From Escherichia coli (GTDB taxonomy: Bacteria > Pseudomonadota > Gammaproteobacteria > Enterobacterales > Enterobacteriaceae): 44,728 bases of DNA. The notes beneath the pieces were generated by a model. That model was given only the letters and a program-made list of their open reading frames with translations. It searched no databases and was not told where the DNA came from. This document shows, piece after piece, positions 1,632 to 41,228 of this stretch. The position numbers and the translations under genes are program-made. The stretch lies in NCBI RefSeq assembly GCF_003334315.1, contig NZ_QOWR01000039.1. One strand, given 5' to 3'. How positions within the stretch are numbered: the stretch's first letter is position 1; each line of letters opens with the position of its first letter.

Positions 1632-1641
1632 GTAATTAACA

Positions 1642-2651
1642 GTGATCATCTATGATGGAATTATAGAAAAATTGCAGTCTGGCGGTGGTGTTACCGTAGT
1701 TTTTAATGAAATTGTCTCGAGGTTAACAGAATATAAATATATTAGCTATGACACTTGTTCTAAAATATCGATAGCTAGAAACAATATGATAAAACCATCA
1801 AGATTTTTGGAACGATATAGAGATTGTGTTATTCCTGATTACAATCCTCAAGATAAGGCTATATTTCATTCGACTTATTATAGATTACCTCATCATTTGA
1901 ACATACCAGTCATAACAACAGTTCATGATTTTACCTATGAAAAGTTCGTTGATGGTCCTGCGAAGAAGATTCATTCATGGCAAAAAAATAGAGCAATACG
2001 TCGGAGTGATATAATCATCTGTGTATCACAAAATACCGCAAATGACTTGATGAGATATTGTCCGGTAAATTCCAGTCGTATTCGTGTAATATATAATGGA
2101 GTTTCAGATGAATATTATCCTTTACCCGAAATTAATAATGTTGATTCTCAAAAAGTATTGTTTGTAGGGGCAAGAGGTGGTTATAAAAACTTTGAATTAG
2201 CAATAGATGCAGTTTCCTCTGTAGCCGGATTAGAGTTACATATAGTGGGGGGGGGGATTTAACAACACAAGAAAAAATAAAATTAGAAAGTAAATTGTCG
2301 GGTAGATATTTTTGGTTGGGTAAGCTTACAAATCAAGAGCTAAATATTGCATATAATAGTAGCTATGCGTTGCTTTATCCATCAAGTTATGAAGGTTTTG
2401 GAATCCCAATTATCGAGGCAATGCGTGCTGGTTGTCCAGTTATTGCTGCGAATTCGTCTTCAATACCTGAAGTTGCTGGCGATGCGGCAATATTAGTGGA
2501 TGATTTGAATATATCTACTTTTCGCGAAGCCCTATTAAGCATACCAGCATGTCGCAATGAATTGATCTCCGCAGGTTTCGCACAGTCTAGAAAATTTTCT
2601 TGGGAGCGCTGTTTCCAGGAAACGTTATTAGCTTATAATGAATTGCTTTAA
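1642..2651 (+). pseudogene. GT1/GT4-type glycosyltransferase split by a frameshift in a G10 homopolymer (ORFs 1642-2262 and 2295-2651)
   Basis: The N-terminal ORF ends ..LHIVGGGI*. The next frame continues DLTTQEKIKLESKLSGRYFWLGKLTNQEL..YPSSYEGFGIPIIEAMRAGCPVIA, which carries the canonical GT4 E-x7-E region. The G run at 2247-2256 is 10 nt; 11 G would give one continuous frame (VGGGDLTT). Confidence 0.75.
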
Positions 2652-2668
2652 TGTATAGTGAGATAAAA

Positions 2669-3793
2669 ATGAGCAAAAAAATCGCATTCCTCACAGGTGT
2701 TACTGGTCAAGATGGCTCTTATCTGGCCGAATTTCTTTTGGCTAAAGGTTATGAAGTTCACGGGATTAAACGTCGCGCATCTTCTTTTAATACAGAGCGA
2801 GTTGATCATATTTATCAAGCACCTCATCATAAAGACCCTAATTTCTTTCTTCATTATGGTGACTTAACAGATTCATCAAACCTGATACGTCTAATCAAAG
2901 AAATCCAACCAAACGAAGTTTATAACCTTGGCGCTCAATCTCATGTAGCGGTTTCATTCGAATCACCTGAATATACTGCTGACGTTGATGCGATGGGGAC
3001 TTTACGTCTGTTGGAGGCGATTCGTATTTGTGGGCTAGAGAAAAAAACACGTTTCTATCAGGCATCTACTTCTGAACTCTTCGGCTTAGTTCAGGAAATC
3101 CCGCAGCGAGAAACAACACCATTCTACCCTCGTTCGCCTTATGCTGTTGCGAAGATGTATGCATACTGGATTACTGTAAACTATCGTGAATCCTATGGAA
3201 TGTACGCCTGTAACGGTATTCTCTTCAACCATGAATCCCCGCGTCGTGGTGAAACATTCGTAACACGTAAAATCACTCGTGCTATTGCAAATATTTCGCA
3301 GGGAATCGAAAAATGTCTCTATCTTGGCAATATGGACTCACTGCGTGACTGGGGACATGCAAAAGATTACGTGCGTATGCAGTGGATGATGTTGCAGCAA
3401 GATCACCCAGAAGATTTTGTTATTGCAACAGGCAAACAAATTTCCGTACGTGAATTTGTTCGTATGTCCGCTAAAGAAGTAGGTCTGGAGTTAGAATTCT
3501 CCGGACAAGGTGTTGATGAAATAGCAACTGTTGTCAATAAAACATCTGACTGTGCTATTGGTGTAAGTATTGGGGATGTGATCGTTCGTGTTGATCCGCG
3601 TTATTTTCGTCCTGCAGAAGTTGAAACTCTTCTTGGTGATCCAGCAAAAGCGAAAAAAGTATTGGGTTGGGAACCAGAGATTACAGTTGAAGAGATGTGT
3701 GCAGAAATGGTTGCCAGTGATCTGGCGAAAGCAAAACAGCATGCACTTCTGAAAAGCCATGGTTACGATGTTGCAGTTTCTCTGGAGCGGTAA
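2669..3793 (+). CDS. gmd: GDP-mannose 4,6-dehydratase
   Basis: [36 protein letters not shown].. is near-collinear with E. coli Gmd. The ATG at 2669 is preferred over the ORF-track start at 2651 because it matches the Gmd N-terminus. Confidence 0.95.
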
Positions 3794-3796
3794 GGT

Positions 3797-4762
3797 ATGA
3801 CAAAAAAACGTATCTACGTTGCTGGTCACCGAGGTATGGTTGGCTCTGCTATTTGCCGTCAATTATCACTGCGTGATGATATCGAATTAGTGGTCAAAAC
3901 ACACAAAGAACTCGATCTAACCGTACAGAAGGATGTTGATGCATTTTTTGAGCAAGAGAAAATTGATCAGGTTTATCTTGCTGCTGCTAAAGTTGGTGGC
4001 ATTTATGCCAACAATACATTTCCGGCAGAATTCATCTATCAGAATCTCATGATTGAGAGTAATATTATTCATTCAGCTCACAAGGCCGGAATTCAAAAAT
4101 TACTTTTTTTAGGCTCAAGCTGTATTTATCCTAAATTCGCAGAGCAGCCGATGAACGAGTCTGCGCTTTTAACGGGCATACTTGAGCCAACTAATGAGCC
4201 ATACGCAATTGCTAAAATTGCGGGCATAAAATTATGTGAATCTTATAACCGTCAATATGGCCGTGATTATCGCAGTGTAATGCCTACTAATCTTTATGGC
4301 ATAAATGATAATTTCCACCCTGAAAACTCTCATGTTATTCCGGCACTCATGCGTAGATTCCATGAGGCAAAAGAGAGTGGTGCACCAGAAGTTATTGTCT
4401 GGGGAACCGGAACACCGATGCGTGAGTTTTTATATGTTGATGATATGGCTGCCGCATCTGTTCATGTAATGGAACTTGACGAAGCAATTTATCAACAAAA
4501 TACACAGCCTATGTTATCTCATATTAATGTTGGTACGGGTGTAGATTGTTCTATACGTGAAATGGCTGAAACAATGGCCTCTGTGGTGGGTTATCAAGGA
4601 AAAATTGTTTTTGATGTTACTAAACCTGATGGCACTCCGCGTAAACTTATGGACGTTACCCGGCTCAAAAACTTGGGCTGGCAATATCGCTATAATTTAC
4701 ATGAAGGCTTATCATTAACATATAAATGGTTTATTGAGAATATTAATTCTTTTCGGGGATAG
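3797..4762 (+). CDS. fcl: GDP-L-fucose synthase (GDP-4-keto-6-deoxymannose 3,5-epimerase/4-reductase)
   Basis: [31 protein letters not shown].. is typical Fcl/WcaG, and the gene lies immediately after gmd. Confidence 0.93.
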
Positions 4763-4764
4763 TT

Positions 4765-5226
4765 ATGAACAAGAGATTGGAACGTGAGCTATTTAAAACA
4801 ATAGTTGAGCATACTCCTCTAATCTCGATTGATCTCATAATTAGAAACGATAAAGGAGAGGCGCTGCTGGGGCAGCGCCTGAATCGCCCAGCACAAAATT
4901 ATTGGTTTGTGCCAGGAGGGCGAATTTATAAGGATGAGTCATTCGAGGTTGCATTTAAACGGATAACATTTGAAGAGTTGGGCGTTAAAATTAGTCTTAA
5001 TGACGCCTTATTTCTTGGGGTGTATGAACATTTTTACAATGATAATTTTTCTGAAGCAGAATTTTCTACACACTATGTAGTGCATGGATATGAAATCCAA
5101 CTTAATCCTCAGCAACTTCACCTACCAACGGTCCAGCATAATTCCTACAAGTGGTTTGATGTAGTAACGTTGCTTAATAGCACTATAGTTCATCAATATA
5201 CCAAAAATTATTTTATACCAAGGTAA
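4765..5226 (+). CDS. gmm: GDP-mannose mannosyl hydrolase (Nudix)
   Basis: Nudix box GGRIYKDESFEVAFKRITFEELG. Position between fcl and manC matches other fucose/colitose O-antigen clusters. Confidence 0.85.
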   Translation: MNKRLERELFKTIVEHTPLISIDLIIRNDKGEALLGQRLNRPAQNYWFVPGGRIYKDESFEVAFKRITFEELGVKISLNDALFLGVYEHFYNDNFSEAEFSTHYVVHGYEIQLNPQQLHLPTVQHNSYKWFDVVTLLNSTIVHQYTKNYFIPR

Positions 5227-5231
5227 TACAT

Positions 5232-6638
5232 ATGCTACTTCCCGTTGTCATGGCCGGTGGTTCAGGTACCAGATTATGGCCTCTTTCACGTACACTTTAT
5301 CCGAAACAATTTCTGTCTTTAAATAGTCGTTTAACCATGTTGCAAGAGACATTGCGGCGGCTTGACAAGATCGAACATAAACCCGCTTTGGTCATTTGTA
5401 ACGAATCACATCGCTTTATCGTTGCTGAACAATTGCGTAAAGAGGGTTTAAAGCATAGTGGTATTTTGCTTGAGCCTGTGGGTCGTAATACTGCGCCTGC
5501 TGTAGCACTCGCAGCACTTCAAGCTATGGTAACTGGAGATGATCCTATTCTGTTGGTTCTTGCTGCTGATCATGAAATCCAGAATGAGGATAATTTCATT
5601 GATGCAGTTCTTGCAGCCAAGAATTTTGCAGAGCAGGGTAAGCTTGTTACGTTTGGTATTGTTCCAACATCCCCAGAGACTGGCTATGGTTACATTAAGT
5701 CAGGTGAATCTTTGGATGGAAAAGGTTACAAAGTTGCGGCTTTTGTTGAAAAACCAGAGCTTCACGTAGCTCAGCGGTATATATCAGATGGCGGTTATCT
5801 TTGGAATAGTGGGATGTTTATGTTCAGAGCATCTGTATTTATCGATGAACTGAAAAAATTCCGACCAGATATTTTAGCCAGTTGCCAAAGCTCTCTGTCC
5901 TCTTCGACACAAGATTTAGATTTTATCCGTCTGGATAACTCTTCATTTTCTTGCTGTCCTGAAGAGTCGATTGATTATGCCGTTATGGAAAAAACAGCCG
6001 AAGCTGTCGTCGTTCCATTAAATGCGCAATGGAGTGATGTTGGGTCATGGTCTGCATTGTGGGAAATAAGTTCAAAAGACCAAAGCGGCAATGCCATTCG
6101 TGGTGATGTATTGGTGGAAGATGCTACAGATAGTTATCTTTATTCGCAGCATAGACTTATTGGTGCCGTGGGCGTAAAGGATTTGGTTGTTGTTGAAACG
6201 AAAGATGCCGTATTAGTTGCTCATAAAGACAAAGTTCAGCAAGTTAAAAATATTGTCGCTCAACTTAAAAAAAATAATCGAACAGAATATTTACAGCATC
6301 GGGAAATTTTTCGGCCCTGGGGCAGTCATGATACTATAGCTGAAGGGCCGCGCTTTCAAGTGAAACATGTGATTGTATTACCTGGTCACATTACCGCTAA
6401 GCAGATTCATTACCATCGTACTGAGCATTGGATTGTTGTCTCGGGGACAGCTAAAGTTCATCTTGAAGATAAGACTTATCTTGTTTCTGAAAATGAATCA
6501 ACATACATACCTGTTGGTGTTCCACATGCCATTGAAAATCCTGGCAAGATCCCACTCGAAATAATTGAGGTTAGATCAGGAGTCTACCTTGAAGAGGATG
6601 ATGTTATAAGAGTTCCTTCTTCTGGAGTAGGATACTAA
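5232..6638 (+). CDS. manC: mannose-1-phosphate guanylyltransferase (bifunctional ManC type with C-terminal cupin)
   Basis: MLLPVVMAGGSGTRLWPLSR..; the C-terminal cupin region has ..HYHRTEHWIVVSG.. Confidence 0.93.
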   Translation: MLLPVVMAGGSGTRLWPLSRTLYPKQFLSLNSRLTMLQETLRRLDKIEHKPALVICNESHRFIVAEQLRKEGLKHSGILLEPVGRNTAPAVALAALQAMVTGDDPILLVLAADHEIQNEDNFIDAVLAAKNFAEQGKLVTFGIVPTSPETGYGYIKSGESLDGKGYKVAAFVEKPELHVAQRYISDGGYLWNSGMFMFRASVFIDELKKFRPDILASCQSSLSSSTQDLDFIRLDNSSFSCCPEESIDYAVMEKTAEAVVVPLNAQWSDVGSWSALWEISSKDQSGNAIRGDVLVEDATDSYLYSQHRLIGAVGVKDLVVVETKDAVLVAHKDKVQQVKNIVAQLKKNNRTEYLQHREIFRPWGSHDTIAEGPRFQVKHVIVLPGHITAKQIHYHRTEHWIVVSGTAKVHLEDKTYLVSENESTYIPVGVPHAIENPGKIPLEIIEVRSGVYLEEDDVIRVPSSGVGY

Positions 6639-7384
6639 TGCGAATTTCTATTATCACAGCTACTTATAATAGTGAAAAAACTCTCCTTGATACATTACTT
6701 TCTCTAGAAAAGCAAACGCATCCAGATATTGAATATATAGTTGTAGATGGAGCATCGAAAGATAATACAATTAAGCTGATTAAGAGTAATTGTACAAAAG
6801 TTTCAAAAATCATTTGCGAACCCGATAAGGGCATTTATGATGCTCTGAATAAAGGTATTCAAGCAGCTTCGGGTGATGTTATTGGTTTTTTACATTCTGA
6901 TGACTTATTTGCTTATGATGATGCTATTGCAGATATAGCAAAAACATTTGAAAGTACAGGATGTGATGCTATTTATGGCGATTTGGAGTATGTTGCCCAA
7001 AATGATACGACTAAACGTATTAGATTATGGAAAAGTGGTTCATTTAGTCGTTTCAAGATGAAAGTGGGTTGGATGCCGCCACACCCATCATTTTATATGA
7101 AACGCGAATGTTATAGTCAGTTTGGTAGTTTTTCTTTAGATTATCGAATATCTGCTGATTATGACTCATTATTACGATATATTTTAAAACAACGTATTTC
7201 GATAGCATATTTACCAAAAGTCTTAGTGAAGATGCGTGTTGGTGGAATTAGCAATCGTTCAGTATCTTCAATGGTCAAGAAGTCAATGGAAGACATTCGT
7301 ATTATGAAACAGAATGGTATTATCTGGCCACTTGCTTTAGCGTATAAAAATATATCCAAACTTCCTCAATTTATTAAAAAGTAA
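6638..7384 (+). CDS. family-2 glycosyltransferase
   Basis: MRISIITATYNSEKTL..YIVVDGASKDNT..HSDD carries the GT2 signature. The start overlaps the manC stop (TAATG). Confidence 0.8.
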   Translation: MRISIITATYNSEKTLLDTLLSLEKQTHPDIEYIVVDGASKDNTIKLIKSNCTKVSKIICEPDKGIYDALNKGIQAASGDVIGFLHSDDLFAYDDAIADIAKTFESTGCDAIYGDLEYVAQNDTTKRIRLWKSGSFSRFKMKVGWMPPHPSFYMKRECYSQFGSFSLDYRISADYDSLLRYILKQRISIAYLPKVLVKMRVGGISNRSVSSMVKKSMEDIRIMKQNGIIWPLALAYKNISKLPQFIKK

Positions 7385-7389
7385 TCATC

Positions 7390-8814
7390 ATGTTAAATGT
7401 TAAAAAAATCATTAACGATAGTAATATTGCGTTCGGTACTAGTGGTGCTCGCGGTTTAGTGATCGATTTTTCCCATGATGTTTGTGCTGCGTTCACTCAT
7501 GCGTTTCTTTCTGTTATTGATGACAAATACAATTTTAATAAAGTTGCCTTAGCCATTGATAACCGCCCAAGTAGTTACGAAATTGCTCAGGCATGCGCGT
7601 ATGCTATAAAACAACATGGATTCGAGGTTGAATATCATGGTGTAATTCCGACTCCTGCATTAGCTCATTATTCGATGCAGAAAAACATTCCCTGCATAAT
7701 GGTCACAGGGAGTCATATCCCTTTTGATCGTAATGGCTTAAAATTCTACAGACCTGATGGTGAAATCACTAAAGAGGATGAGCTCGCAATTATAAATAGT
7801 GAGTATACATTTTCGCCTGTAGGTGAATTACCTCATCTTGAAACAAGCACTCAAGGTGCAGACTACTACCTCGAGCGTTATGTTTCTCTTTTTAATCCCG
7901 AGATTTTAAAGGGGAAAAGAATAGGGGTATATGAACATTCTAGTGCGGGACGTGATTTATATGCTCCTCTTTTTAATCAAATGGGTGCAGAGGTCATTTC
8001 CCTCGGTAGGAGTGATGAGTTCGTTCCGATTGATACGGAAGCAGTAAGCGATGAAGATCGTATACTTGCAAGAGAGTGGTCTAAAAAATATAATCTTGAT
8101 GCTATTTTCTCAACAGATGGCGATGGTGATCGTCCTTTAGTTGCCGATGAAAATGGTGAATGGTTAAGAGGCGATATTCTGGGACTACTTACTGCTATTG
8201 AACTTAATATCAAGGCGTTGGCTATTCCAGTGAGTTGTAATACAGCAATTGAAGAGTCTAATAAATTTGCAAGTATACAACGAACGAAAATAGGTTCTCC
8301 TTATGTAATTGCAGCATTTGCAGATCTTGCTAAGCAATTTGATTCAGTCGCTGGTTTTGAAGCTAATGGTGGTTTTCTCCTTGCCTCCGATTTACAAATT
8401 AATGGCAAGGAATTAAAATCGTTACCTACACGAGATGCTGTGTTACCAGCATTAATGCTCTTAATAGCTTCTCGCAATAGTACTATTTCTCAACTGATTA
8501 ATAATCTTCCTCAGCGATTCACTTGGTCAGATAGAGTTAAAAACTTCCCTTCAGATTCAAGTCAACAAATTATAAAAAATGCCATATCGTCACCCAATAA
8601 TTTCTTTAATAGTTTAGGTTATGAATCATTATCCTGTTCCGCTATTGATGAAACGGATGGTGCAAGATTTACTTTAAATAATGGTGATATTATACATCTC
8701 CGTCCTTCCGGTAATGCTCCAGAACTCCGTTGTTATGCTGAGGCCAGTGATGAAAATCAGGCTAAGCAATATGTTACGAATGTGCTGGGAAATATTACCT
8801 CTTTGATTTCTTGA
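7390..8814 (+). CDS. manB: phosphomannomutase (RfbK-like type)
   Basis: The N-terminus ..IAFGTSGARGLV.. and the active-site loop TGSHIPFDRNGLKF resemble Salmonella RfbK-type phosphomannomutases. It is the last gene before gnd. Confidence 0.85.
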   Translation: MLNVKKIINDSNIAFGTSGARGLVIDFSHDVCAAFTHAFLSVIDDKYNFNKVALAIDNRPSSYEIAQACAYAIKQHGFEVEYHGVIPTPALAHYSMQKNIPCIMVTGSHIPFDRNGLKFYRPDGEITKEDELAIINSEYTFSPVGELPHLETSTQGADYYLERYVSLFNPEILKGKRIGVYEHSSAGRDLYAPLFNQMGAEVISLGRSDEFVPIDTEAVSDEDRILAREWSKKYNLDAIFSTDGDGDRPLVADENGEWLRGDILGLLTAIELNIKALAIPVSCNTAIEESNKFASIQRTKIGSPYVIAAFADLAKQFDSVAGFEANGGFLLASDLQINGKELKSLPTRDAVLPALMLLIASRNSTISQLINNLPQRFTWSDRVKNFPSDSSQQIIKNAISSPNNFFNSLGYESLSCSAIDETDGARFTLNNGDIIHLRPSGNAPELRCYAEASDENQAKQYVTNVLGNITSLIS

Positions 8815-9010
8815 TGTTATAGGTTTATCTACGCTTTTATGTGTGCGTAGGTTTGATTACACGTAGATGCCGGTATACAGAATTGAAGAACGGTATTTGT
8901 TGCATTAATGAAATTCAGCACTACACACATTCGTGCAACTTGAGATAACATCTCAATCATATTCAAGTCGCGCATACATCGCGGTGAACACCCCCTGACA
9001 GGAGTAAACA

Positions 9011-10417
9011 ATGTCAAAGCAACAGATCGGCGTCGTCGGTATGGCAGTGATGGGGCGCAACCTTGCGCTCAACATCGAAAGCCGTGGTTATACCGTCTCT
9101 ATTTTCAACCGTTCCCGTGAGAAAACGGAAGAAGTGATTGCCGAAAATCCAGGCAAGAAACTGGTTCCTTACTATACGGTGAAAGAGTTTGTTGAATCTC
9201 TGGAAACGCCTCGTCGCATCCTGTTAATGGTGAAAGCAGGTGCAGGCACGGATGCTGCTATTGATTCCCTCAAACCATATCTCGATAAAGGCGACATCAT
9301 CATTGATGGTGGTAACACCTTCTTCCAGGACACCATTCGTCGTAATCGTGAGCTTTCTGCAGAAGGCTTTAACTTCATTGGTACCGGTGTTTCCGGCGGT
9401 GAAGAAGGTGCGCTGAAAGGTCCTTCCATTATGCCTGGTGGGCAGAAAGAAGCCTATGAACTGGTTGCACCGATCCTGACCAAAATCGCCGCAGTAGCTG
9501 AAGACGGTGAGCCATGCGTTACCTATATTGGTGCCGATGGTGCAGGTCATTATGTGAAGATGGTTCACAACGGTATTGAATACGGCGATATGCAGCTGAT
9601 TGCTGAAGCCTATTCTCTGCTTAAAGGTGGCTTGAACCTCACCAACGAAGAACTGGCGCAGACCTTTACCGAGTGGAATAACGGTGAACTGAGCAGCTAC
9701 CTGATCGACATCACCAAAGATATCTTCACCAAAAAAGATGAAGACGGTAACTACCTGGTTGATGTGATCCTGGATGAAGCGGCTAACAAAGGTACCGGTA
9801 AATGGACCAGCCAGAGCGCACTGGATCTCGGCGAACCGCTGTCGCTGATTACCGAGTCTGTGTTTGCACGTTATATCTCTTCTCTGAAAGATCAGCGTGT
9901 TGCCGCGTCTAAAGTTCTCACTGGCCCGAAAGCGCAGCCAGCAGGCGATAAGGCTGAGTTCATCGAGAAAGTTCGTCGTGCTCTGTATCTGGGCAAAATC
10001 GTTTCTTACGCTCAGGGCTTCTCTCAGCTGCGTGCTGCGTCTGAAGAGTACAACTGGGATCTGAACTACGGCGAAATCGCGAAGATTTTCCGTGCTGGCT
10101 GCATCATCCGTGCGCAGTTCCTGCAGAAAATCACCGATGCATATGCCGAAAATCCGCAGATCGCTAACCTGTTGCTGGCTCCTTACTTCAAGCAAATTGC
10201 CGATGACTACCAGCAGGCGCTGCGCGATGTCGTCGCTTACGCAGTACAGAACGGTATCCCGGTTCCGACCTTCGCTGCTGCGGTTGCCTATTACGATAGC
10301 TACCGTGCCGCTGTTCTGCCTGCGAACCTGATCCAGGCACAGCGTGACTATTTCGGTGCACATACTTATAAGCGCATTGATAAAGACGGTGTGTTCCATA
10401 CCGAATGGCTGGATTAA
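9011..10417 (+). CDS. gnd: 6-phosphogluconate dehydrogenase (decarboxylating)
   Basis: [30 protein letters not shown].. matches E. coli Gnd over its full length (468 aa). Confidence 0.98.
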
Positions 10418-10446
10418 TCTGATTTAAATCAATTAATCAATGCAAG

Positions 10447-10473
10447 GCCCGGAGAAACCCTCCGGGCTTTTTT
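10447..10473 (+). terminator. rho-independent terminator of gnd
   Basis: Stem GCCCGGAG (10447-10454) pairs with CTCCGGGC (10460-10467), followed by T6. Confidence 0.8.
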
Positions 10474-10665
10474 ATTATACAAAGCGGCAGGTTATGGCCT
10501 TTTTTTATAATTTATAGTTAAAAACGCGATATAATACAGCGCCGCACAGCAGGATCGCTGCCTTGACAGTTCATCTACATCAGCGTTAAAAATCCCGCAG
10601 TAGATGAAGTTGTGGTGGTGGATTAATGACCACTCTAAATGTTTAACCGGAAGAAGTCAGAGCTA

Positions 10666-11832
10666 ATGAAAATAACAATTTCAGGAACAGGTTATGTTGG
10701 TCTTTCAAATGGTATTCTGATTGCGCAAAATCACGAAGTGGTTGCACTGGATATCGTTCAGGCCAAAGTGGACATGCTTAACAAGAAGCAGTCACCGATT
10801 GTTGATAAGGAGATTGAAGAGTATCTGGCGACTAAAGATCTCAATTTCCGCGCTACGACAGATAAGTATGACGCGTATAAAAATGCCGATTACGTTATTA
10901 TTGCCACACCTACCGATTATGATCCGAAAACAAATTATTTTAATACCTCAAGCGTGGAAGCGGTCATTCGCGATGTGACAGAAATTAATCCCAACGCGGT
11001 AATGGTGATTAAATCTACAATTCCGGTAGGTTTCACCAAATCAATTAAAGAACGTCTGGGTATCGATAACCTTATTTTCTCTCCGGAATTTCTCCGTGAA
11101 GGTAAAGCCCTTTACGATAATCTCCATCCTTCACGTATTGTCATTGGTGAGCGTTCAGAACGCGCAGAACGTTTTGCTGCGTTGTTACAGGAAGGCGCGA
11201 TTAAGCAAAATATCCCTACACTGTTTACCGACTCCACTGAAGCAGAAGCGATTAAACTTTTCGCTAATACCTATCTGGCCATGCGCGTAGCATACTTTAA
11301 TGAACTGGATAGCTATGCAGAAAGTTTAGGTCTGAATACTCGCCAGATTATCGAAGGCGTTTGTCTCGATCCGCGTATTGGCAACCATTACAACAATCCG
11401 TCGTTTGGTTATGGTGGTTATTGTCTGCCGAAAGATACCAAGCAGTTATTGGCGAACTACCAGTCTGTGCCGAATAACCTGATTTCGGCAATTGTCGATG
11501 CTAACCGCACGCGTAAAGACTTTATTGCCGATGCCATTTTGTCACGCAAACCGCAAGTGGTGGGTATTTATCGTCTGATTATGAAGAGCGGGTCAGATAA
11601 CTTCCGTGCGTCTTCCATTCAGGGGATTATGAAACGTATCAAGGCGAAAGGCGTTGAAGTGATCATTTACGAACCGGTGATGAAAGAAGACTCGTTCTTC
11701 AACTCTCGGCTGGAACGTGATCTCGCCACTTTCAAACAACAAGCCGACGTCATTATTTCCAACCGTATGGCAGAAGAGCTTAAGGATGTGGCAGACAAAG
11801 TCTACACCCGCGATCTCTTTGGCAGTGACTAA
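10666..11832 (+). CDS. ugd: UDP-glucose 6-dehydrogenase
   Basis: [29 protein letters not shown].. matches E. coli Ugd. The ATG at 10666 is preferred over the ORF-track start at 10639. Confidence 0.96.
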
Positions 11833-34575: not shown

Positions 34576-35397
34576 TCAGCGCAGGCTCTCCAGCATCGTT
34601 TCTGCCATCACCCACAATGCGCGATTGAGCTTAATGTCGGTATCAATGCTGTGAATGGCCCGGGTATGGATACGTTTTCCTTTTGCACTGCGACCGGAAA
34701 TCCCGCCTTTCAGCATATTCTCCTGGATGGTCTGATATGCGCTCCACAGGTCCTTACCGTAATCCTCCCGGCGTCGCGGCGTCAGAATGTCGGCGGTGGT
34801 GACGGGCTGATGTTCGTCACCATAACGGTAAGTCAGTGCCGCCTGTGCCAGCGCCTGGCGTGCCGGTGGCGGCAGGACCAGCGATTGCATGGCATCACGC
34901 TTCTCCTCTATCCGGTCAAACACGCCCACCACCTCGTAAGCCCCTTCAATGACTCTGTCCACCACATTTCCCCGGTGCGGAACACGCACTTCCCCCAGAG
35001 ACTGACCACAGACGCAGCCGTTCTGGCAGACGAACCTGAAGTAACCCGGCAGCATCTGGTAGCTGGAGGTACCGTCATGAGAGTTGAGCAGAATAATTTC
35101 AGGGACATGTTCTCCGTTTATCTCTCCGGCCCGCCGCAGACGCAGCATGTGTTTGGTATATTCCCGGCGGCTCTGGTCGCGCACACGGGTCTGGCAGGCG
35201 AAGAACGGCTGAAAGCCTTCCCGCTGCAGATTTTCCAGGACGGTAATGGTGGGAATGTACGCATACCGTTCACTGCGGGAGGTGTGCCGGTCTTCCCCAA
35301 AAATACTGGGTACATGGCGTATCAGTTCTTCATGTGTCAGCGGACGGTCACGGCGTATCTGGTTTGCAGCATAACCAAAACGACTGGCTAATCGCAT
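34576..35397 (-). CDS. DUF932 (UPF0380) protein, YafZ/YfjQ-like
   Basis: MRLASRFGYAANQIRRDRPLTHEELIRHVPSIFGEDRHTSRSERYAYIPT.. matches the YafZ/YfjQ family and is 273 aa, the same length as those proteins. Confidence 0.85.
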   Translation of the reverse strand: MRLASRFGYAANQIRRDRPLTHEELIRHVPSIFGEDRHTSRSERYAYIPTITVLENLQREGFQPFFACQTRVRDQSRREYTKHMLRLRRAGEINGEHVPEIILLNSHDGTSSYQMLPGYFRFVCQNGCVCGQSLGEVRVPHRGNVVDRVIEGAYEVVGVFDRIEEKRDAMQSLVLPPPARQALAQAALTYRYGDEHQPVTTADILTPRRREDYGKDLWSAYQTIQENMLKGGISGRSAKGKRIHTRAIHSIDTDIKLNRALWVMAETMLESLR

Positions 35398-35442
35398 ACT
35401 TTGCTCCTTATCGGTGGTTAAGATTTACTGGTGCAATAAATG

Positions 35443-35474
35443 AAAAAAGCCGCGTCTCCCGGAGAAGACGCGGC
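35443..35474 (-). terminator. rho-independent terminator after the secreted-protein gene pair
   Basis: On the minus strand, GCCGCGTCT-tctccggg-AGACGCGGC is followed by TTTTTTC. Confidence 0.8.
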
Positions 35475-35617
35475 CTGACGGGTGAAATGAATAAGGTTTA
35501 TTGTCTGAGAGGCCTTTCACTGGCGAGCCACGCATTAAGCGGCTTTCCGGTAACAATGGCTGGGGCTGTATTTACCTTTGATATTAATAATGTGCAGAGA
35601 AACGCATGGTTTACTCC

Positions 35618-36028
35618 TTAGATTTTAAGTTTGTCCTGGGCTACAACGACAGGTTTTCCGGATGTGTCGATGACTCCTACCGTCGGTACGCCATTTTTGA
35701 TTTCGAAGAACGGTTTGTTGCTACCTGAGCACAGTTGATTGTCCCCGTATTCAATCATTTGTGCTTTCCCGGTTTTCAGGTTAACTACCGAGACAGTGTA
35801 GTCGTAGCACCAGGCACCACCACGTTCAAGCACGAAAACATAGCTGTTATCTTTATAGTTGAACTGATTCTTTGTCTGGCAATTCATACCGTCAATTTCG
35901 GTACAGGAAAACGCTTCTGTAGTATTAACGTATTTGATGTTATTTGGCAGTTTTACTTGTTTCGCAGTAGCGAAGACAGAGAACAGAATAGTTACAGCAA
36001 CGAGTAAAGTTTTGATAAAAGTTTTCAT
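35618..36028 (-). CDS. hypothetical secreted protein (136 aa, cleavable signal peptide, five Cys in the mature part)
   Basis: The N-terminus MKTFIKTLLVAVTILFSVFATA-KQ looks like a Sec signal. I recognise no family. The gene is AT-richer than the flanking island genes. Confidence 0.6.
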   Translation of the reverse strand: MKTFIKTLLVAVTILFSVFATAKQVKLPNNIKYVNTTEAFSCTEIDGMNCQTKNQFNYKDNSYVFVLERGGAWCYDYTVSVVNLKTGKAQMIEYGDNQLCSGSNKPFFEIKNGVPTVGVIDTSGKPVVVAQDKLKI

Positions 36029-36043
36029 GATAGACTCCTTAAA

Positions 36044-36532
36044 TTAGTTAAACGCAGCTACGTAGTTTTTCACCAGATACGCGAATTCATGCACGCCAAT
36101 TTCACCGAACCAAACCAGGTAGGCCGGGTCATCTAAACCAAAGTAACGGTAGCCAACAACTTCATGGGTTTTTGGGTTATAGAGTGTTACGATAAAGTCC
36201 CAGCCGCAGGTATTGGCTTTGCAACCGTCGCCCTGGAGCCAGACTGTATCGTTAATGTTTACTGGCGTGATACCTCCACCAGGGCCATCCATATAGCCGC
36301 CTTTACCGAACATGCCGCTCAGTCCGACCGGTTTTAATGCTTTGTCGATAGCGGCTTTGTAGGTAGCGTCACCTTCGTACAACTCGTACGTTGATGGACA
36401 CGCTCCAGGTTGTTCAGCCCAGGCTTCCGGGTTACAACTAAGTGCTTGTTTTACGGTAGCCGCTTCTGCGTTAAAGTTAAAGCCCGTGAACAGAACCGCC
36501 AGAAATAACATAAGGGTATGTAAACGTTTCAT
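36044..36532 (-). CDS. secreted protein with Ivy-like (inhibitor of vertebrate lysozyme) signature
   Basis: From the ATG at 36532 the protein reads MKRLHTLMLFLAVLFTGFNFNAEA-ATVKQ.. (signal peptide). The core ..VWLQGDGCKANTCGWDFIVTLYNP.. parallels the Ivy loop ..QVMSACKPHDCGSQRIAVMWSE.. (C-K-x3-C-G followed by a beta strand). The ORF track extends to 36835, but that extension crosses the upstream terminator. An alternative start at 36727 (MKLPVKLLMSLISLVSVIARA) is possible. Confidence 0.5.
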   Translation of the reverse strand: MKRLHTLMLFLAVLFTGFNFNAEAATVKQALSCNPEAWAEQPGACPSTYELYEGDATYKAAIDKALKPVGLSGMFGKGGYMDGPGGGITPVNINDTVWLQGDGCKANTCGWDFIVTLYNPKTHEVVGYRYFGLDDPAYLVWFGEIGVHEFAYLVKNYVAAFN

Positions 36533-36821
36533 TGTAAATATTCTTCCGTTGTAAATGGCGCTGGAAAATTTCTCATCAGTGAAACCTTCCGGAAGTTTCC
36601 CCCCCTTGTATGATGTATATCGCCAGTATTTTATTTCATCCCGGCTGTAATTTTTATATTCCCCGGCACGTGCAATAACGCTGACCAGAGATATAAGGCT
36701 CATTAATAACTTTACAGGTAATTTCATAATTAAATTTCCAGTGAGTGAATTGACAGGTGAGGGGTAAAACTTTCTCTCAGGTAATATATATCTGAAAATA
36801 TTTTCAATAACACCAGACAGG

Positions 36822-36847
36822 AAAAACACCACCACAGGCGGTGGCGT
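36822..36847 (-). terminator. putative terminator of the dynamin-like/patatin operon
   Basis: On the minus strand, ACGCCACC-gcctgt-GGTGGTGT (one G-U pair) is followed by TTTTC. It lies 15 nt after the patatin stop. Confidence 0.6.
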
Positions 36848-36862
36848 TTCTTTGGGGCGTCT

Positions 36863-37933
36863 TTATTTAATCCGGGCCATCGCGTTTCTCAGTGCCAAAT
36901 CTGCCTCTTCCGTTATATCCAGGCTTTTCTGCAATACCGCCTCTGACCGGGTCAGTGCCTGACGTGCTGCCAAGGGGTTCCGGATATGCTCCATCGTCAG
37001 CATCGTGTCTTCATAGCCCTGCTGACGCCAGATGTCGGTATGTGCCGATGTAAAACTGAGCAGACCGCCACTTTTGCCTTCTTCCCCTGTGTGTTTCAGC
37101 CTTTTCCGGGGACGGATTTCAAGGATTGTGGTGTCCGGAAAAGCCCGGCGATCCCATAAAGAACCGTCACTCAGATGCGTCACAATCACCATATTGCATC
37201 CGGCATCGACCAGAGGCGTTACAGGGGTATTTCCCTGCATATTTCGCCATCCTCCCATCCCACCATCACCGAACATTGTCCCCTGAACCTCACGGGGATG
37301 GAACAACAGGGGCAGTGCGGCTGACGCAAGCAGAGCCTCTTTCTGCTGTCCGCGGGGCAGACTCTGGATATGCTGAAAAACGGCGTTTTTCGTGGTTCCG
37401 GCACCCAGTTCAGCACGAATGCAGTCAATAATATCCTGTATGCCCCCTTCTGTGGGGTACAGCGACACATACAGCGGTAGCCCGTCTGCCAGAGCATCAG
37501 TATCAAGATAATGATCCATCAGCGCTGTCAGAGGCTCATCTGACAACAGCGGCTGAGCCATCGGATTGTCGAAGCCGTTGATTATCGATATATGGCGAAG
37601 AAGTATCGTAAGCAGTGCTCCTGCACGTCCGGGGATCTGGCAGAGGTTCATTGCCTGGAACAATTTTTTCAGCAATGAAAAGTAAACCGATCGGTTTACC
37701 GACAGCACCTGATTATTCCCCAGATGATCCCAGAGCGCCTCCAGGCGTACGGCAGCTTCTGACAGATCGGGAGAGGCCGCGATAATGGCACCATTGAATG
37801 CGCCAATGCTGGCCCCTGAAACCATGCTGATCTGTGTACCACACTCTGCCAGTGCCTTAACCACTCCCGCCTGATAAGCGCCCACCGCCCCGCCACCGGA
37901 CAGCACCAGCCCCGTTTTCATTTCTGTACTCAT
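36863..37933 (-). CDS. patatin-like phospholipase
   Basis: It has the oxyanion-hole motif LSGGGAVGAYQAG (aa 11-23), the nucleophile elbow G-A-S-I-G (Ser42) and the catalytic D-G-G (Asp223). The ATG overlaps the upstream stop (ATGA). Confidence 0.88.
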   Translation of the reverse strand: MSTEMKTGLVLSGGGAVGAYQAGVVKALAECGTQISMVSGASIGAFNGAIIAASPDLSEAAVRLEALWDHLGNNQVLSVNRSVYFSLLKKLFQAMNLCQIPGRAGALLTILLRHISIINGFDNPMAQPLLSDEPLTALMDHYLDTDALADGLPLYVSLYPTEGGIQDIIDCIRAELGAGTTKNAVFQHIQSLPRGQQKEALLASAALPLLFHPREVQGTMFGDGGMGGWRNMQGNTPVTPLVDAGCNMVIVTHLSDGSLWDRRAFPDTTILEIRPRKRLKHTGEEGKSGGLLSFTSAHTDIWRQQGYEDTMLTMEHIRNPLAARQALTRSEAVLQKSLDITEEADLALRNAMARIK

Positions 37934-38835
37934 GCAGCCCCCTTCTGAAATATTTCATCGACCATACTTTCAGAGAGGCGTTCTGCAGAGCAGAGGCGAG
38001 GCATGCGAACCGGTAAGTGTTCTGCAGCCTGCGTGGTTGACCAGATCACCGGATGCTGCTCTTCACTGCACCAGTCTCCCAGCCAGTTAATCGCGTCATG
38101 CCACTCGTTATCTGCCTGCTCCCGGCCCTGACCACCAAGCCAGTCCAGAGTGTTCAGACGCACGGTTGCACTACCGCCACTCTCCTGTGCCATCTGCGTT
38201 AATGCTTTATGTCTGAGAATATCCAGTAGCTGGTTAACCTGGCCTGTTTCGCTCTGACGTATCACATCACCAAACGCGCCCCAGCGAAGCTCTTCAAGTG
38301 CCACATAACAACGTCCGGCAGGGGAAAATGACGCATATCGCCCGGCGCTCCACCATGAGAATATCTGCTCAAGATGTAACTGCGCCCGCTGAACCTGGTC
38401 AACACGGTGGAGTTTTTCTTCAAGATGATTCAGTTTATGGTGAACCTGATCGGCCAGGGTGAGTAACTGCTCCCGCGTATCTGCGGAATAATGCGCCAGC
38501 CTGGCTGTATCACTGACCAGTGAACTGACCCTGTCGTTTACCCGGGTAATCGCGTAGTTTGTGGTGGCAAGTGACGTTGTCATCTCCGTCAGCCAGCGCA
38601 GGGACGCCTCAACGCCCTGTGCAAGCGACGCATTGATGGCATTCTGCCGTGCAGCGCCTTCGCCGGTCAGCCCCTCTTTTAAACGCCGGAAGAACGTGCG
38701 CTCTCCGGCCGTGCGGATATGCTCCTGTGCAACATCGATTCCGTTTGCGAAATCAACCACAAATTTTTCAGGAAGACAGGTGAGTACCTGACATACCCGG
38801 TTATCAGCAATTTGTTGAATAAATGGTGAAGTCAC
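37930..38835 (-). CDS. YjcZ/RdcB-like protein (partner of the dynamin-like GTPase)
   Basis: The 301-aa protein has a central coiled-coil-like segment (..REQLLTLADQVHHKLNHLEEKLHRVDQVQRAQLHLEQ..). Its size, position immediately after a YjdA-like GTPase and motifs such as ..GEGAARQNAINASL.. and ..ALEELRWGAFGD.. recall E. coli YjcZ (RdcB). The GTG start overlaps the upstream stop (GTGA). Confidence 0.6.
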   Translation of the reverse strand: MTSPFIQQIADNRVCQVLTCLPEKFVVDFANGIDVAQEHIRTAGERTFFRRLKEGLTGEGAARQNAINASLAQGVEASLRWLTEMTTSLATTNYAITRVNDRVSSLVSDTARLAHYSADTREQLLTLADQVHHKLNHLEEKLHRVDQVQRAQLHLEQIFSWWSAGRYASFSPAGRCYVALEELRWGAFGDVIRQSETGQVNQLLDILRHKALTQMAQESGGSATVRLNTLDWLGGQGREQADNEWHDAINWLGDWCSEEQHPVIWSTTQAAEHLPVRMPRLCSAERLSESMVDEIFQKGAA

Positions 38836-41228
38836 AGCATTGTCTCCAGCTCTTCCCTCAGCGCCTTACTGTCAGTAATGAGCTCAGGAACCCTTTCATT
38901 TAATGCCTGAAGTCGCCCGGTAAGTCGTTCCTGCGCCTGCTGATCGCGTTTATGATCTTCAGAGCTCTGAATCAGCGTGTTACGCAGTTGTTCAACTTTC
39001 TCCCTGAATGCGCAGAAAAAGGCATCGATTTCCTGGCGGACGGGCTGGTTAATATCCTGCTCAATGGATGCCTGCAGCTCCCCGAAATATGCCCGGGTCA
39101 GTGACATAACTTCCTCTCTGACCTTGTTGATATTGATCACGCTGCGACTCACATCCTCGTCATAGTTTTCCCAGCCCAGGTCACTGGTGCCAAACCATCG
39201 ACAAACGGTTCCCCATACGCCACTCTGCCGACGGCGACGGGTGACGGTCTCCGTTCTTTCCTCCATAAGCGCACTCAGATTTATTTTTACCGCGAGCCGG
39301 GTCTGTAACTGGCTGACTGCCGGAAAACTGATTTTTACGGTAAAGCCCTCATCCTCCAGGCGGGCATTGATGCGACCGGCAATGTTTTCTGTGGCGTACA
39401 GGGCCGTGCCACGAAAACCTGTTTCAATCCCGCTGACGATTTTCTCCAGCTCAGGCCGGAACTGTGCTTCAGCCTCACGGTGCAGGCTGGTCACGGTCGA
39501 TTCGATTTGCGTCATCAGTTCAAGGGCTTCCCTGCGATCACTGAATTTTATTTCGGGGCTGTCCGGGGCAAAATCTCGTTTCCTGTAATCCTCCCGGCCC
39601 TGGTTGTTGATACCGGACCATTGAGAAATTTTCCCCCATAATCCGGACTGAGACCTTCGTTGTTCTGCGTCTTCTTCCTCCAGCATTTGCTGTTCTTTGC
39701 GTTTACCGCTTCTGAAATAGTCATTCAGCTCCTCTTCCAGTGAGGTGCAGACCCCCGTCAGTAATTCCCGGGTTTTAGTATCGATCTCCTCCATGGCCAT
39801 TCTGACATCAGTGGTCATCTGCTCCTGACAGTCCGCGATTTCCCGGATATCCGCAAGCAGGCTGGTGATATGCGACTGCAGTGACTGAATGCTTTGCTGT
39901 AGCCCCTGATGGCGTAACAACAGGTATTCACTGATATTTTCTGCATTCTGCATCAGTTTTGCGGCGGCAGAGTCAACCGCCAGTGCCGCAGCTCTGGAAT
40001 GTGAGCTCTGTATGACTTCCGTTATCAGTTGATCGATAAGTGAGCCTTCCCACAGGTCTGTCGCCCCTTCAGTTGCCAGTTCACTGTCTTTACAGACGTA
40101 TTCTTTTTTCATGCAACCGAAGGCACCTCTGATAAAATCATCGACCCAGGCTTCATCAACAGGAAGGGTTCCGTTTTTCCGTAACTCATGAAGCGCACGG
40201 TTAGCCAGGTATGCCTGGCGTGAGGATCCGGGATAAACGCGGGAGGCGGGCAGCACATCGCTGTTCAGCATTGCCGGAACTTTCTGGCGTACGGCATCTG
40301 CCCCATCGCCATTGCGGTCTTTCTCATCAAATTTATTGACCAGTACAAACAGGCGGCCGGCTGATACGTCAGCAATGGCATTAAGCTCTTTACGGACGTC
40401 TTCATCCGCTTTTGAGTTCATCTGGGTGTAATCCATCACAGCCAGAACCGCAGAGGCTTTCTGCAGTTGATCCCGCATCATCACTTCCATCTGCGGTTGT
40501 CCGGCCTCATTAGGGCCGGGGGTATCCAGCAGTGTGAGTGTTCCCTGGCATGCATCCATCCCCACCAGATGGCTGAATTCCACGTCGATCACCGGCAGTT
40601 TCTGCACTTCTGCGTATTCATCAAAAGGAAATTCAGTCCCCATTGCCGCAGCAAGACGAACCAGATCGTTTAACGATGCCAGTCCGGTAAAGATTTCCTC
40701 CTCCCCGTGGTATTCATTTTTGAGCCAGCCATCATCCGTCAGAATATCCAGCAGTTCGCGGGTATCCCCGGTTTGCTGCAGGGTCTGTGCGACCTGCTGT
40801 CCTGCCGGGGTGGCGAGTTTTTCCTGCAGTGTGATTAATAAATTGCGGACAGGCTGAATATGTTCCAGATGGAGAACCGGCTCAGTTTTTCCGGGAACGT
40901 GGCGGATGAGCGTCGGTACAGAGGTCATGGGGCGGTTACGGTTAGGCAGAATTTCCTGCCCCACAATGGCGTTGATGGTGGTTGATTTGCCTGCTTTCAT
41001 CGTGCCGACAACAGCCAGCACCATCTCCCTGCGGGCGGTTTTGATTTGTTCGCCCTCCAGCTCCTCAATTCTTTTCAGTGCTTTCTGTTTATCAAAAAGC
41101 AGTCTGTTTTCGTTCTTACTGTCAGATAACACATCTGGCTCCTCAACCATTTGCCGGAGCAGATTAATGTTCAGTTGCAAAAGTCGGTCGGCTTCATCAC
41201 AAAGCAGGGCGATGTTCTTTTCGTGCAT
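38832..41228 (-). CDS. bacterial dynamin-like GTPase, CrfC/YjdA(RdcA) paralogue (798 aa)
   Basis: G1 is GTMKAGKST (aa 75-83; nt 40983-41006), G3 is DTPGPNE (aa 235-241) and G4 is NKFD (aa 298-301). The stretch MVLAVVGTMKAGKSTTINAIVGQEILPNRNRPMTSVPTLIRH is almost identical in pattern to E. coli YjdA/CrfC. The C-terminal half is long and helical. An AGGAAGG SD lies 7 nt before the ATG. Confidence 0.88.
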   Translation of the reverse strand: MHEKNIALLCDEADRLLQLNINLLRQMVEEPDVLSDSKNENRLLFDKQKALKRIEELEGEQIKTARREMVLAVVGTMKAGKSTTINAIVGQEILPNRNRPMTSVPTLIRHVPGKTEPVLHLEHIQPVRNLLITLQEKLATPAGQQVAQTLQQTGDTRELLDILTDDGWLKNEYHGEEEIFTGLASLNDLVRLAAAMGTEFPFDEYAEVQKLPVIDVEFSHLVGMDACQGTLTLLDTPGPNEAGQPQMEVMMRDQLQKASAVLAVMDYTQMNSKADEDVRKELNAIADVSAGRLFVLVNKFDEKDRNGDGADAVRQKVPAMLNSDVLPASRVYPGSSRQAYLANRALHELRKNGTLPVDEAWVDDFIRGAFGCMKKEYVCKDSELATEGATDLWEGSLIDQLITEVIQSSHSRAAALAVDSAAAKLMQNAENISEYLLLRHQGLQQSIQSLQSHITSLLADIREIADCQEQMTTDVRMAMEEIDTKTRELLTGVCTSLEEELNDYFRSGKRKEQQMLEEEDAEQRRSQSGLWGKISQWSGINNQGREDYRKRDFAPDSPEIKFSDRREALELMTQIESTVTSLHREAEAQFRPELEKIVSGIETGFRGTALYATENIAGRINARLEDEGFTVKISFPAVSQLQTRLAVKINLSALMEERTETVTRRRRQSGVWGTVCRWFGTSDLGWENYDEDVSRSVININKVREEVMSLTRAYFGELQASIEQDINQPVRQEIDAFFCAFREKVEQLRNTLIQSSEDHKRDQQAQERLTGRLQALNERVPELITDSKALREELETML

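Follow-up and report, generated by a model that had tools for sequence, protein, structure and literature searches.

The current analysis concerns a two-gene unit on the minus strand of a CP4-44-type island of Escherichia coli, situated between two terminators within a 44,728-nucleotide stretch of DNA (contig NZ_QOWR01000039.1, assembly GCF_003334315.1), hereafter referred to as the window. With a probability of roughly 0.6, the unit is best explained as a phage-derived pair that would encode a periplasmic Ivy-fold inhibitor of a peptidoglycan-cleaving glycosidase together with a 136-amino-acid partner, the apparent N-terminal extension of the first gene being the stump of a different gene. 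In RefSeq, both products of the unit are annotated as hypothetical, namely WP_032187468.1 (227 amino acids, from the ATG at 36727) and WP_000846713.1 (136 amino acids). The Ivy-like fold itself was already noted in a 2024 preprint (10.1101/2024.04.20.590424); new here are a corrected gene model, in which the stump is fused to a gene starting at 36532, the decayed neighbours on both sides, and a jumbo-phage module that holds both genes. The 227-amino-acid model hides an Ivy-fold protein and has shaped the two-domain, membrane-anchored description given in the preprint. The corrected model defines a predicted mature protein (residues 25-162), places the published CRISPR interference (CRISPRi) guide within a gene stump, where it would be polar on two genes, and ties the pair to an uncharacterised exported-protein module of SPN3US-like jumbo phages.

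A divergent member of the Ivy superfamily

Read from the ATG at 36532, the first gene encodes a 162-amino-acid protein whose AlphaFold2 model (predicted local distance difference test score (pLDDT) 76, predicted template modelling score (pTM) 0.73, from an 11-sequence alignment) exhibits the Ivy fold, an antiparallel beta sheet packed on helices. A Foldseek comparison of this model with the Protein Data Bank (PDB) returned Ivy proteins as all of its top eight matches (E 3.8e-5 to 0.03, target-normalised TM 0.61-0.74), whereas the ninth had an E of 1.7. Among all PDB sequences, phmmer found two matches only, both of them E. coli Ivy and both weak (E 1.3), with CKANTCG aligned onto CKPHDCG. The family is a small one, as a profile of its close members recovered only 56 representatives from 1.84 billion proteins. 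When three family members were aligned with 28 distant relatives, 26 of the 31 sequences matched the Pfam Ivy family PF08816 (best E 7.6e-12), and the joint profile matched PDB Ivy with an E of 2.3e-12. A tblastn search likewise led to Klebsiella plasmid genes annotated "Ivy family c-type lysozyme inhibitor" (33% identity over 96%, E 2e-10). Since the structure, phmmer, the joint profile and tblastn all point only to Ivy, the 162-amino-acid protein is a divergent member of the Ivy superfamily, visible solely via its structure and intermediate relatives. The first-pass annotation had suggested an Ivy-like lysozyme inhibitor at this locus, and this call is borne out by the fold, the loop position and the transitive homology, but not by any direct match to a family model.

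The CKANTCG motif lies at residues 104-110 and is followed in the model by a beta strand (residues 112-119), just as the first-pass annotation had described a C-K-x3-C-G loop preceding a strand. Both loop cysteines are near-invariant in the superfamily alignment. Compared with Ivy proper (E. coli YkfE, PDB 1gpq/1xs0; Pseudomonas aeruginosa Ivyp1/PA3902, PDB 1uuz/4ps6; PF08816), the protein is only 16-20% identical, has CKANTC where Ivy has CKPHDC, possesses an extra invariant Cys pair near its N-terminus (C33 and C45) and has its gene on a mobile island and in jumbo phages, whereas Ivy is a core chromosomal gene. Its closest annotated relatives, the Klebsiella plasmid proteins (WP_228706714.1, 312 amino acids; P0088 and P0089), share the N-terminal Cys pair and the same type of island context (GTPase, WYL, DUF905), and their loops read CEANNC or CEAHNC. 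In one such case, Klebsiella sp. plasmid NZ_CP017451.1 (positions 4998-5936 of the locus extracted from it, L018), the 312-residue, two-domain gene lies between GTPase/WYL and DUF905 genes.

The two encoded proteins each bear a Sec-type signal peptide, as had been proposed from the sequence, and the unit contains three signal-peptide-like N-termini altogether, all recognised by sequence inspection and a hydropathy scan and all having basic n-regions, 12-15-residue hydrophobic cores and A-x-A sites. The N-terminus of the Ivy-like protein (MKRLHTLMLFLAVLFTGFNFNAEA, with AT following the predicted cleavage site) begins MKR and has a 15-residue hydrophobic core by inspection; the corresponding hydropathy peak is at residues 69-75 of the fused frame, and in the structural model this region forms a low-pLDDT N-terminal helix. 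The Ivy-like open reading frame (ORF) is under purifying selection, with a ratio of nonsynonymous to synonymous divergence (dN/dS) of 0.10-0.27, and it is intact across alleles separated by dS values of up to >1. A common, C-terminally altered allele family (P0004; 213 amino acids, 364 member sequences) has this ORF cut near its C-terminus, with unrelated sequence past residue ~187, and some genomes have IS3 or IS1 elements inside the matched region (hits H1 and H26). Some E. coli lineages therefore appear to have an inactivated copy of the Ivy-like gene.

The N-terminal extension as the stump of a deleted gene

The reading frame of the Ivy-like gene stays open upstream, from the ATG at 36727 through that at 36532, and the first-pass annotation had noticed this open frame with its further signal-peptide-like N-terminus (MKLPVKLLMSLISLVSVIARA, then GE), which RefSeq annotates as an ORF of 227 amino acids. 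Of the two possibilities originally raised, a genuine N-terminal extension or an absorbed upstream gene, it is the latter that has held, more exactly as the 5' remnant of a 180-amino-acid protein gene joined in frame by a deletion. The extension, 65 residues long, aligns colinearly with residues 1-63 of a 180-amino-acid protein encoded in a related island, L003 (49% identity, E 4e-18; 46% for a 185-amino-acid form). In L003 and another related island, L015, the genes after patatin are, in order, an intact gene for the exported protein of 180 or 185 amino acids, the decayed remnant of a 128-amino-acid gene and the Ivy-like gene. Alignment of the window with these relatives reveals a deletion of ~0.7 kb, extending from about codon 63 to just short of the Ivy-like ATG. 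Homologues of the Ivy-like protein accordingly come in two lengths, 223-227 amino acids with the extension and 160-161 amino acids with an MKRL start. The MKRL start is used in all phage alleles and many island alleles, and in the phage loci its ATG is located 17-18 nucleotides past the stop codon of the preceding gene, behind a good Shine-Dalgarno sequence.

The extension also evolves differently from the ORF to which it is fused. Nonsynonymous and synonymous changes in the stump numbered 12:2, 16:2, 6:0 and 5:0, giving a dN/dS that is not below 1, in contrast to that of the Ivy-like ORF. Such counts agree with neutral evolution (P 0.14) but not with an omega of 0.17 (P ~1e-6). In an E. coli O146 allele, a TGG to TGA change places a stop codon inside the stump, while the Ivy-like ORF downstream is intact. 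Most of the 2,250 genomes bearing the stump nonetheless have an uninterrupted frame; however, the synonymous divergence of the stump is only 0-0.05, so this would be expected from recent common ancestry and implies no selection. We conclude that the extension from 36727 is most likely a non-functional stump rather than a real N-terminus, and that the start of the RefSeq model is most likely wrong, the true start being at 36532. Shine-Dalgarno pairing energies were considered as a discriminator between the two start codons and rejected, since pairing is weak at both (-3.3 and -3.5 kcal/mol in the window, compared to -5.7 to -8.2 kcal/mol in intact relatives); the deletion took out most of the native Shine-Dalgarno sequence of the Ivy-like gene.

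Several further features of the junction deserve mention. Divergence breaks sharply at this point, with dS of 0-0.05 in the stump and 0.8-1.2 in the Ivy-like and 136-amino-acid genes between the same alleles, a difference which implies that the two-gene cassette has probably been swapped by recombination downstream of a fixed junction. At L003 5640-6000, a frame-broken remnant of the 128-amino-acid module gene (ending in HPLAVGNYTAVDFFHSAELIGRITLNRSAE and a stop codon) lies between the 180-amino-acid and Ivy-like genes, which shows that the module decayed stepwise in different lineages. Island variants of this kind are also devoid of the 136-amino-acid gene. The 180-amino-acid protein was unmatched in a tblastn search of deposited phage genomes.

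The 136-amino-acid partner

The second protein had been regarded as an orphan, a view that can no longer be maintained. It matches phrog_8968 with an E of 2.6e-45 (residues 1-131 to profile positions 1-133 of 135) and gp182 of the Salmonella jumbo phage SPN3US with 37% identity (E 2e-17), and homologues that are 35-37% identical are found in Salmonella, Erwinia and Escherichia jumbo phages. Profile comparison indicates that it is paralogous to a 129-amino-acid family (96% probability) and to SPN3US gp181 (92%); all three are of an exported type by sequence and have four similarly spaced cysteines. Its own N-terminus is signal-peptide-like (MKTFIKTLLVAVTILFSVFATA, then KQ). The structural model (pLDDT 69) is all-beta, and a structural search yielded no informative neighbour. 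Like its companion, the ORF is intact at dS up to >1, with a dN/dS of 0.12-0.31.

Only 15 nucleotides separate the stop codon of the Ivy-like gene from the start of the 136-amino-acid gene, and this spacer contains a strong Shine-Dalgarno sequence; with so short a gap, the two genes are probably co-transcribed. In every locus keeping the 136-amino-acid gene, it is the next gene after the Ivy-like gene. Just past its stop codon sits an 8-codon stump (MRFSAHY and a stop) of the next module gene, a member of the 129-amino-acid family (phrog_5248), which could be aligned with the corresponding genes of two other loci, L006 (MRFICALAFF...) and L010. Neither the 162- nor the 136-amino-acid protein matched the PADLOC-DB v2 defence models at E<=0.01.

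The Klebsiella proteins described above have an extra C-terminal domain of ~150 amino acids with four cysteines, and the idea that this domain is a fused counterpart of the 136-amino-acid partner was tried and rejected, as the two have no significant similarity (BLASTP E 2, hhalign 0.2-0.4%). By BLASTP and profile comparison, the domain has no convincing match to any module family; the comparison with the 129-amino-acid family gave a weak hint (11% probability, E 0.003).

Relationship to a jumbo-phage module

In its complete form, the array to which these genes belong consists of a YfjT-like gene followed by genes for proteins of 128/130 amino acids, 160/161 amino acids (Ivy-like), 136 amino acids and 129 amino acids, and then by 158-amino-acid, 202-amino-acid and SbcC/SMC-like genes. 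It is found in metagenomic contigs, in IMG/VR viral contigs of 220-225 kb, which carry the Ivy-like, 136- and 129-amino-acid genes together, and in two "plasmid" records of 222 kb each, namely Enterobacter ludwigii NZ_CP134650.1 ("plasmid unnamed1"; L017) and E. coli NZ_CP173450.1. The latter two are filed as non-mobilizable plasmids and nearly all of their genes are hypothetical (27-kb stretch), but both are syntenic with SPN3US gp180-186 and look like jumbo-phage genomes. Phrog families were matched by the 136-, 128- and 129-amino-acid proteins, and the SMC-like neighbour is 60-71% identical to proteins of Erwinia and Salmonella jumbo phages.

The SPN3US genes gp180-gp183 and their equivalents in Erwinia Seoulviruses form a syntenic module of small exported proteins, all annotated as hypothetical, in which gp180 corresponds to the 128/130-amino-acid family, gp182 to the 136-amino-acid protein and gp183 to the 129-amino-acid family, and the same 158-, 202-amino-acid and SMC-like genes follow (to gp186). 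The principal difference is that the slot of the Ivy-like gene is taken in SPN3US by gp181, a four-cysteine paralogue of gp182 and gp183 lacking the Ivy fold; gp181 was considered as a hidden Ivy homologue and rejected (BLASTP E 2). Phage loci with the Ivy-like gene have a guanine plus cytosine (GC) content of 43.5-44.9%, compared to 43.1% for the unit. On this evidence the island unit and the jumbo-phage module descend from a common ancestor, and the unit is, by all appearances, the decayed remainder of a module of this type, of which two genes are intact in the window island while the neighbours on both sides have decayed.

Two other aspects of the phage loci may be recorded. Upstream of the module (L006 559-3874, L012 2809-5385) are four tandem paralogous genes whose products, of 185-383 amino acids and with no recorded Pfam family, end in a common motif (GW..V...G.QLLF.A). 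Roughly 6 kb downstream of the module, the ~220-kb phage carries a gene for an SLT-domain lytic transglycosylase (L012 14407-14483; L017 20159-20845), and this protein is a candidate cognate target of the Ivy-fold inhibitor.

The disulfide loop and a possible mode of action

According to PMC4262234, which cites Abergel 2007, inhibition by Ivy requires the CKPHDC loop; 30 family members have this loop in strictly conserved form, and five have a CExxDxC variant. Close alleles of the window gene have CKANAC, CKSNAC, CKSDAC or CKAHAC, and the island and phage subfamily as a whole conforms to CK[AS][NHD][AT]C. The position-4 His is kept by 23 of the 28 distant relatives, most of which have C-x-x-H-[ND]-C. 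Given that the loop of the window allele is devoid of the canonical His and Asp, inhibition of c-type (vertebrate) lysozyme is not to be assumed. Ivy proteins also inhibit bacterial lytic transglycosylases (PMC3660660, PMC10139938).

We therefore envisage the following scheme. The product of the first gene, translated from the ATG at 36532, would be exported to the periplasm, where the CKANTC disulfide loop would be inserted into the active-site cleft of a lysozyme or lytic transglycosylase and thus block the enzyme. Because the loop lacks His and Asp, the module has its home in phages and a phage phenotype is described in the preprint, the target would more likely be a phage enzyme or another enzyme of the bacterial world than a vertebrate lysozyme, and a role in superinfection exclusion or anti-phage activity is our leading guess. 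The second gene would supply an exported, disulfide-bonded, beta-rich protein of the phage paralogue family that includes SPN3US gp181, gp182 and gp183, co-inherited with the first.

A functional model for such a protein, by analogy, is T4 Spackle (gp61.3), a phage-encoded, signal-peptide-bearing and disulfide-bonded periplasmic inhibitor of the tail lysozyme gp5 that excludes superinfecting phage (PMC7677548). Spackle differs in having an unrelated alpha-helical fold, an allosteric mechanism and an activity proven by experiment, whereas the Ivy-like protein is known here from its sequence and a model. Resemblance also exists to PliC/MliC, PliG and PliI, which PMC7677548 describes as small, beta-rich proteins that are exported and place a loop in the active site of lysozymes; the Ivy-like protein is similarly small and beta-rich, and is predicted to be exported.

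A published knockdown phenotype

The PHAGEPACK preprint describes hypo_04657 of E. coli O121 as Ivy-like, with CKANTC replacing CKPHDC, and proposes that it inhibits phage lysozyme; its knockdown by CRISPRi is reported to improve T7 plating on O121, with efficiencies of plating (EOP) of 1.09, 1.5 and 1.0 relative to the permissive strain BW25113, compared to 0 for the O121 control (10.1101/2024.04.20.590424). The guide given in its supplement (GCTGTAATTTTTATATTCCC) together with the CGG protospacer adjacent motif (PAM) has a single exact match in the window, at 36644-36666, which identifies hypo_04657 as the locus described here. This site lies inside the stump, 112 nucleotides upstream of the MKRL ATG, where it encodes G-E-Y-K-N-Y-S. 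Since this guide targets the non-template strand, a block to transcription of the two genes downstream is to be expected. In the preprint, the Ivy-like part is assigned to the N-terminal half of the protein and a helical "transmembrane" domain to the C-terminus (10.1101/2024.04.20.590424, Fig. 5B text). The actual order in the ORF is the reverse, with a helical N-terminal part made up of two signal peptides and a C-terminal Ivy domain.

We regard the T7 phenotype as suggestive only. An on-target effect would mean that the pair is transcribed from a start upstream of 36666, with the transcript passing through the stump; the locus would then represent a periplasmic, inhibitor-based phage barrier, few examples of which are known, and it would offer a first clue to the function of these jumbo-phage genes. 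Should the effect be off-target, the locus would be an ordinary, partly decayed piece of mobile-element cargo.

Evaluation of the proposed function and its alternatives

A number of observations weigh against the explanation of the unit as a phage-derived inhibitor and partner. T7 gp16 has a lytic-transglycosylase domain used at entry, and loss of this activity merely delays infection; inhibition of gp16 alone would consequently not explain a complete block of T7. The preprint knockdown is polar on both genes and was uncomplemented, and many unrelated knockdowns in its validation table likewise have an EOP of ~1 (10.1101/2024.04.20.590424). The loop of the window allele has Asn and Thr where Ivy has His and Asp, with Lys retained, and just 2 of 11 close alleles have His in the loop. 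A sliding-window analysis for an arms-race signal near the loop found no window of the Ivy-like gene with a dN/dS >0.45, and hence none >1. Among family models, Pfam gave no match for the Ivy-like protein at E<=1, including PF08816, and the NCBIfam Ivy model NF007443 scored 13.5 bits (E 0.048) against a cutoff of 180; the search with Ivy hidden Markov models that the first-pass annotation had named as a test of its call thus fails directly, and at E<=1 neither small protein matches the PliC/MliC, PliG or PliI Pfam models either. Strict and lenient scans identified no convincing sigma-70 promoter 5' of either ATG (best score 8/12), and both Shine-Dalgarno sequences are weak in the window allele, so that the sequence favours neither start on this count. 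Lastly, tblastn found no match for the Ivy-like protein in deposited phage genomes, so that its phage link rests on the IMG/VR contigs and the phage-like "plasmids", and base composition favours transfer from phage to island without proving this direction.

A bolder and doubtful version of the phage-derived inhibitor would have the Ivy-fold protein, with or without its four-cysteine partner, serve as a jumbo-phage "entry blocker", domesticated by E. coli on a widespread island for defence or superinfection exclusion, that neutralises a virion peptidoglycan cutter or another envelope step and is a major determinant of T7 non-permissiveness, for instance in O121; it would resemble Spackle in function while having evolved independently on an Ivy scaffold, with its loop re-tooled without His. 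It is unlikely that the protein is instead an ordinary inhibitor of the Ivy type, directed against vertebrate c-type lysozyme and aiding E. coli in an animal host, even though the fold, the equivalent C-x4-C loop and its Lys are those of Ivy, some alleles (CKAHAC) have His at the canonical position, and the unit occurs commonly in E. coli from humans and animals. The species already possesses a chromosomal ivy gene, and the intact form of the module is found in jumbo phages. The window allele, moreover, has N and T in place of the H and D that are essential according to PMC4262234. Also improbable is a function within the cell itself, be it regulation of its own lytic transglycosylases or, as the first-pass annotation had surmised, self-protection from the adjacent dynamin/YjcZ/patatin operon. 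Ivy proteins inhibit MltB, with E. coli Ivy partially inhibiting MltA and MltB in vitro (PMC10139938, PMC3660660), and in every E. coli island examined the unit comes after the patatin operon. Apart from this adjacency, however, nothing supports the tie: a terminator separates the unit from the operon, their GC contents differ by ~10 points, phage loci with the module have no such operon in the ~12-kb regions examined, and patatin is a lipid hydrolase rather than a peptidoglycan glycosidase, for which the Ivy fold would be no obvious antidote.

There is a slim chance that the annotated 227-amino-acid ORF, as given by RefSeq and the preprint, is the real product, with the Ivy domain preceded by a functional N-terminal extension or membrane anchor. 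The prevalence of the open frame, the equally weak Shine-Dalgarno sequence of the internal ATG and the effective CRISPRi guide in the extension, which means that transcription passes through it, are all compatible with such a product, whereas the colinearity of the extension with the start of a separate gene, its lack of purifying selection, the nonsense allele beside an intact Ivy ORF, the openness expected by chance at so low a synonymous divergence, and the MKRL start of all phage and many island alleles argue otherwise. Furthermore, in a protein made from 36727 the first signal peptide would presumably be cleaved and translocation would halt at the second hydrophobic segment, which would serve as a stop-transfer sequence and keep the Ivy domain in the cytoplasm. 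Finally, the two genes might be inert cargo decaying like their neighbours, in keeping with the truncated or deleted flanking module genes, the truncated P0004 alleles, the insertion sequences within the unit in some genomes and the native Shine-Dalgarno sequence damaged by deletion. We consider this very improbable, as both ORFs have stayed intact between alleles that diverge by dS of up to >1, at a dN/dS of 0.1-0.3, and a knockdown phenotype is reported in the preprint.

Locus, boundaries and distribution

Colinearity of the window with E. coli strain Combat11I9 extends from gnd/ugd across the his operon and sbcB-yeeA into the CP4-44-type island (Table 1). The unit is visibly AT-richer than its surroundings, as had been noted at first sight: its GC content (35477-36826) is 43.1%, compared to 52-57% for the flanks (52-54% for the patatin, YjcZ and dynamin genes and 56.7% for the DUF932 gene). 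The terminators previously proposed as its borders were both found by a terminator scan, which detected 7 terminator-like sites in the region where 1.8 would be expected from shuffled sequences. No Rfam model matched 35000-37200 at E<=1, and hence no known RNA element accounts for the spacers.

Table 1. Positions of the features discussed, given in window coordinates and ordered along the minus strand.
Feature	Position	Strand	Remarks
Dynamin-family GTPase gene (CrfC/YjdA-like, 798 aa)	38832-41228	minus	
YjcZ/RdcB-family gene	37930-38835	minus	
Patatin-like phospholipase gene	36863-37933	minus	stop codon at 36863
Intrinsic terminator 3' of patatin gene	36827-36843	minus	7-bp stem, 5 GC pairs, TTTTT tail; T-run to ~36817; -15.8 kcal/mol (extended hairpin)
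Open frame holding ATG 36727 and ATG 36532	36044-36835	minus	
Spacer 5' of stump	36728-36826	minus	first ~90 nt near-identical in relatives with intact 180-aa gene
5' remnant (65 codons) of a different gene, for a 180-aa exported protein	36533-36727	minus	in-frame fusion with next gene
CRISPRi protospacer and CGG PAM	36644-36666	plus	guide GCTGTAATTTTTATATTCCC from preprint supplement, exact match
Ivy-fold gene, 162 aa	36044-36532	minus	MKRL start (conserved, ancestral); stop TAA 36044-36046
Predicted Sec-type signal peptide of Ivy-like protein, 24 residues	36461-36532	minus	AEA/A site (-3/-1 rule)
Loop C104-K-A-N-T-C109, equivalent to Ivy CKPHDC	36206-36223	minus	HMMER alignment to 1gpq/1xs0
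Shine-Dalgarno AAGGAG of 136-aa gene	36035-36040	minus	duplex -8.7 kcal/mol
Gene for 136-aa exported, 4-Cys, beta-rich protein	35618-36028	minus	phrog_8968
8-codon stump of 129-aa-family gene	35584-35607	minus	MRFSAHY-stop; phrog_5248; GGAG-N6-ATG
Strong intrinsic terminator closing the unit	35447-35476	minus	13-bp stem, 8 GC pairs, -24.5 kcal/mol
DUF932 gene	34576-35397	minus	then antirestriction, RadC/YeeS, YeeT and CbeA/CbtA genes

Many E. coli chromosomes match the 1.7 kb around the unit with 100% identity. Of 5,426 complete E. coli genomes, 1,879 contain at least 80% of this region and 2,250 contain the stump region, which places the stump-bearing allele at ~40%. Outside the island, positions 1-9000 of the window, on the side of the O-antigen cluster, have no match in the otherwise colinear reference strain, and positions 8996-11832, on the gnd/ugd side, are just 90% identical to it; the mismatch over 1-11832 is consistent with a different O-serotype cluster beside gnd/ugd.

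The three-gene operon upstream of the unit (36863-41228) resembles a paralogue of the yjdA-yjcZ pair of K-12 that is located on the island and has gained a lipase. Its PADLOC matches were weak, namely to LeoBC of the Eleos/dynamin system (E 8.6e-5) and to phospholipase effectors (E 8.4e-5), and the operon may be an uncharacterised defence system.

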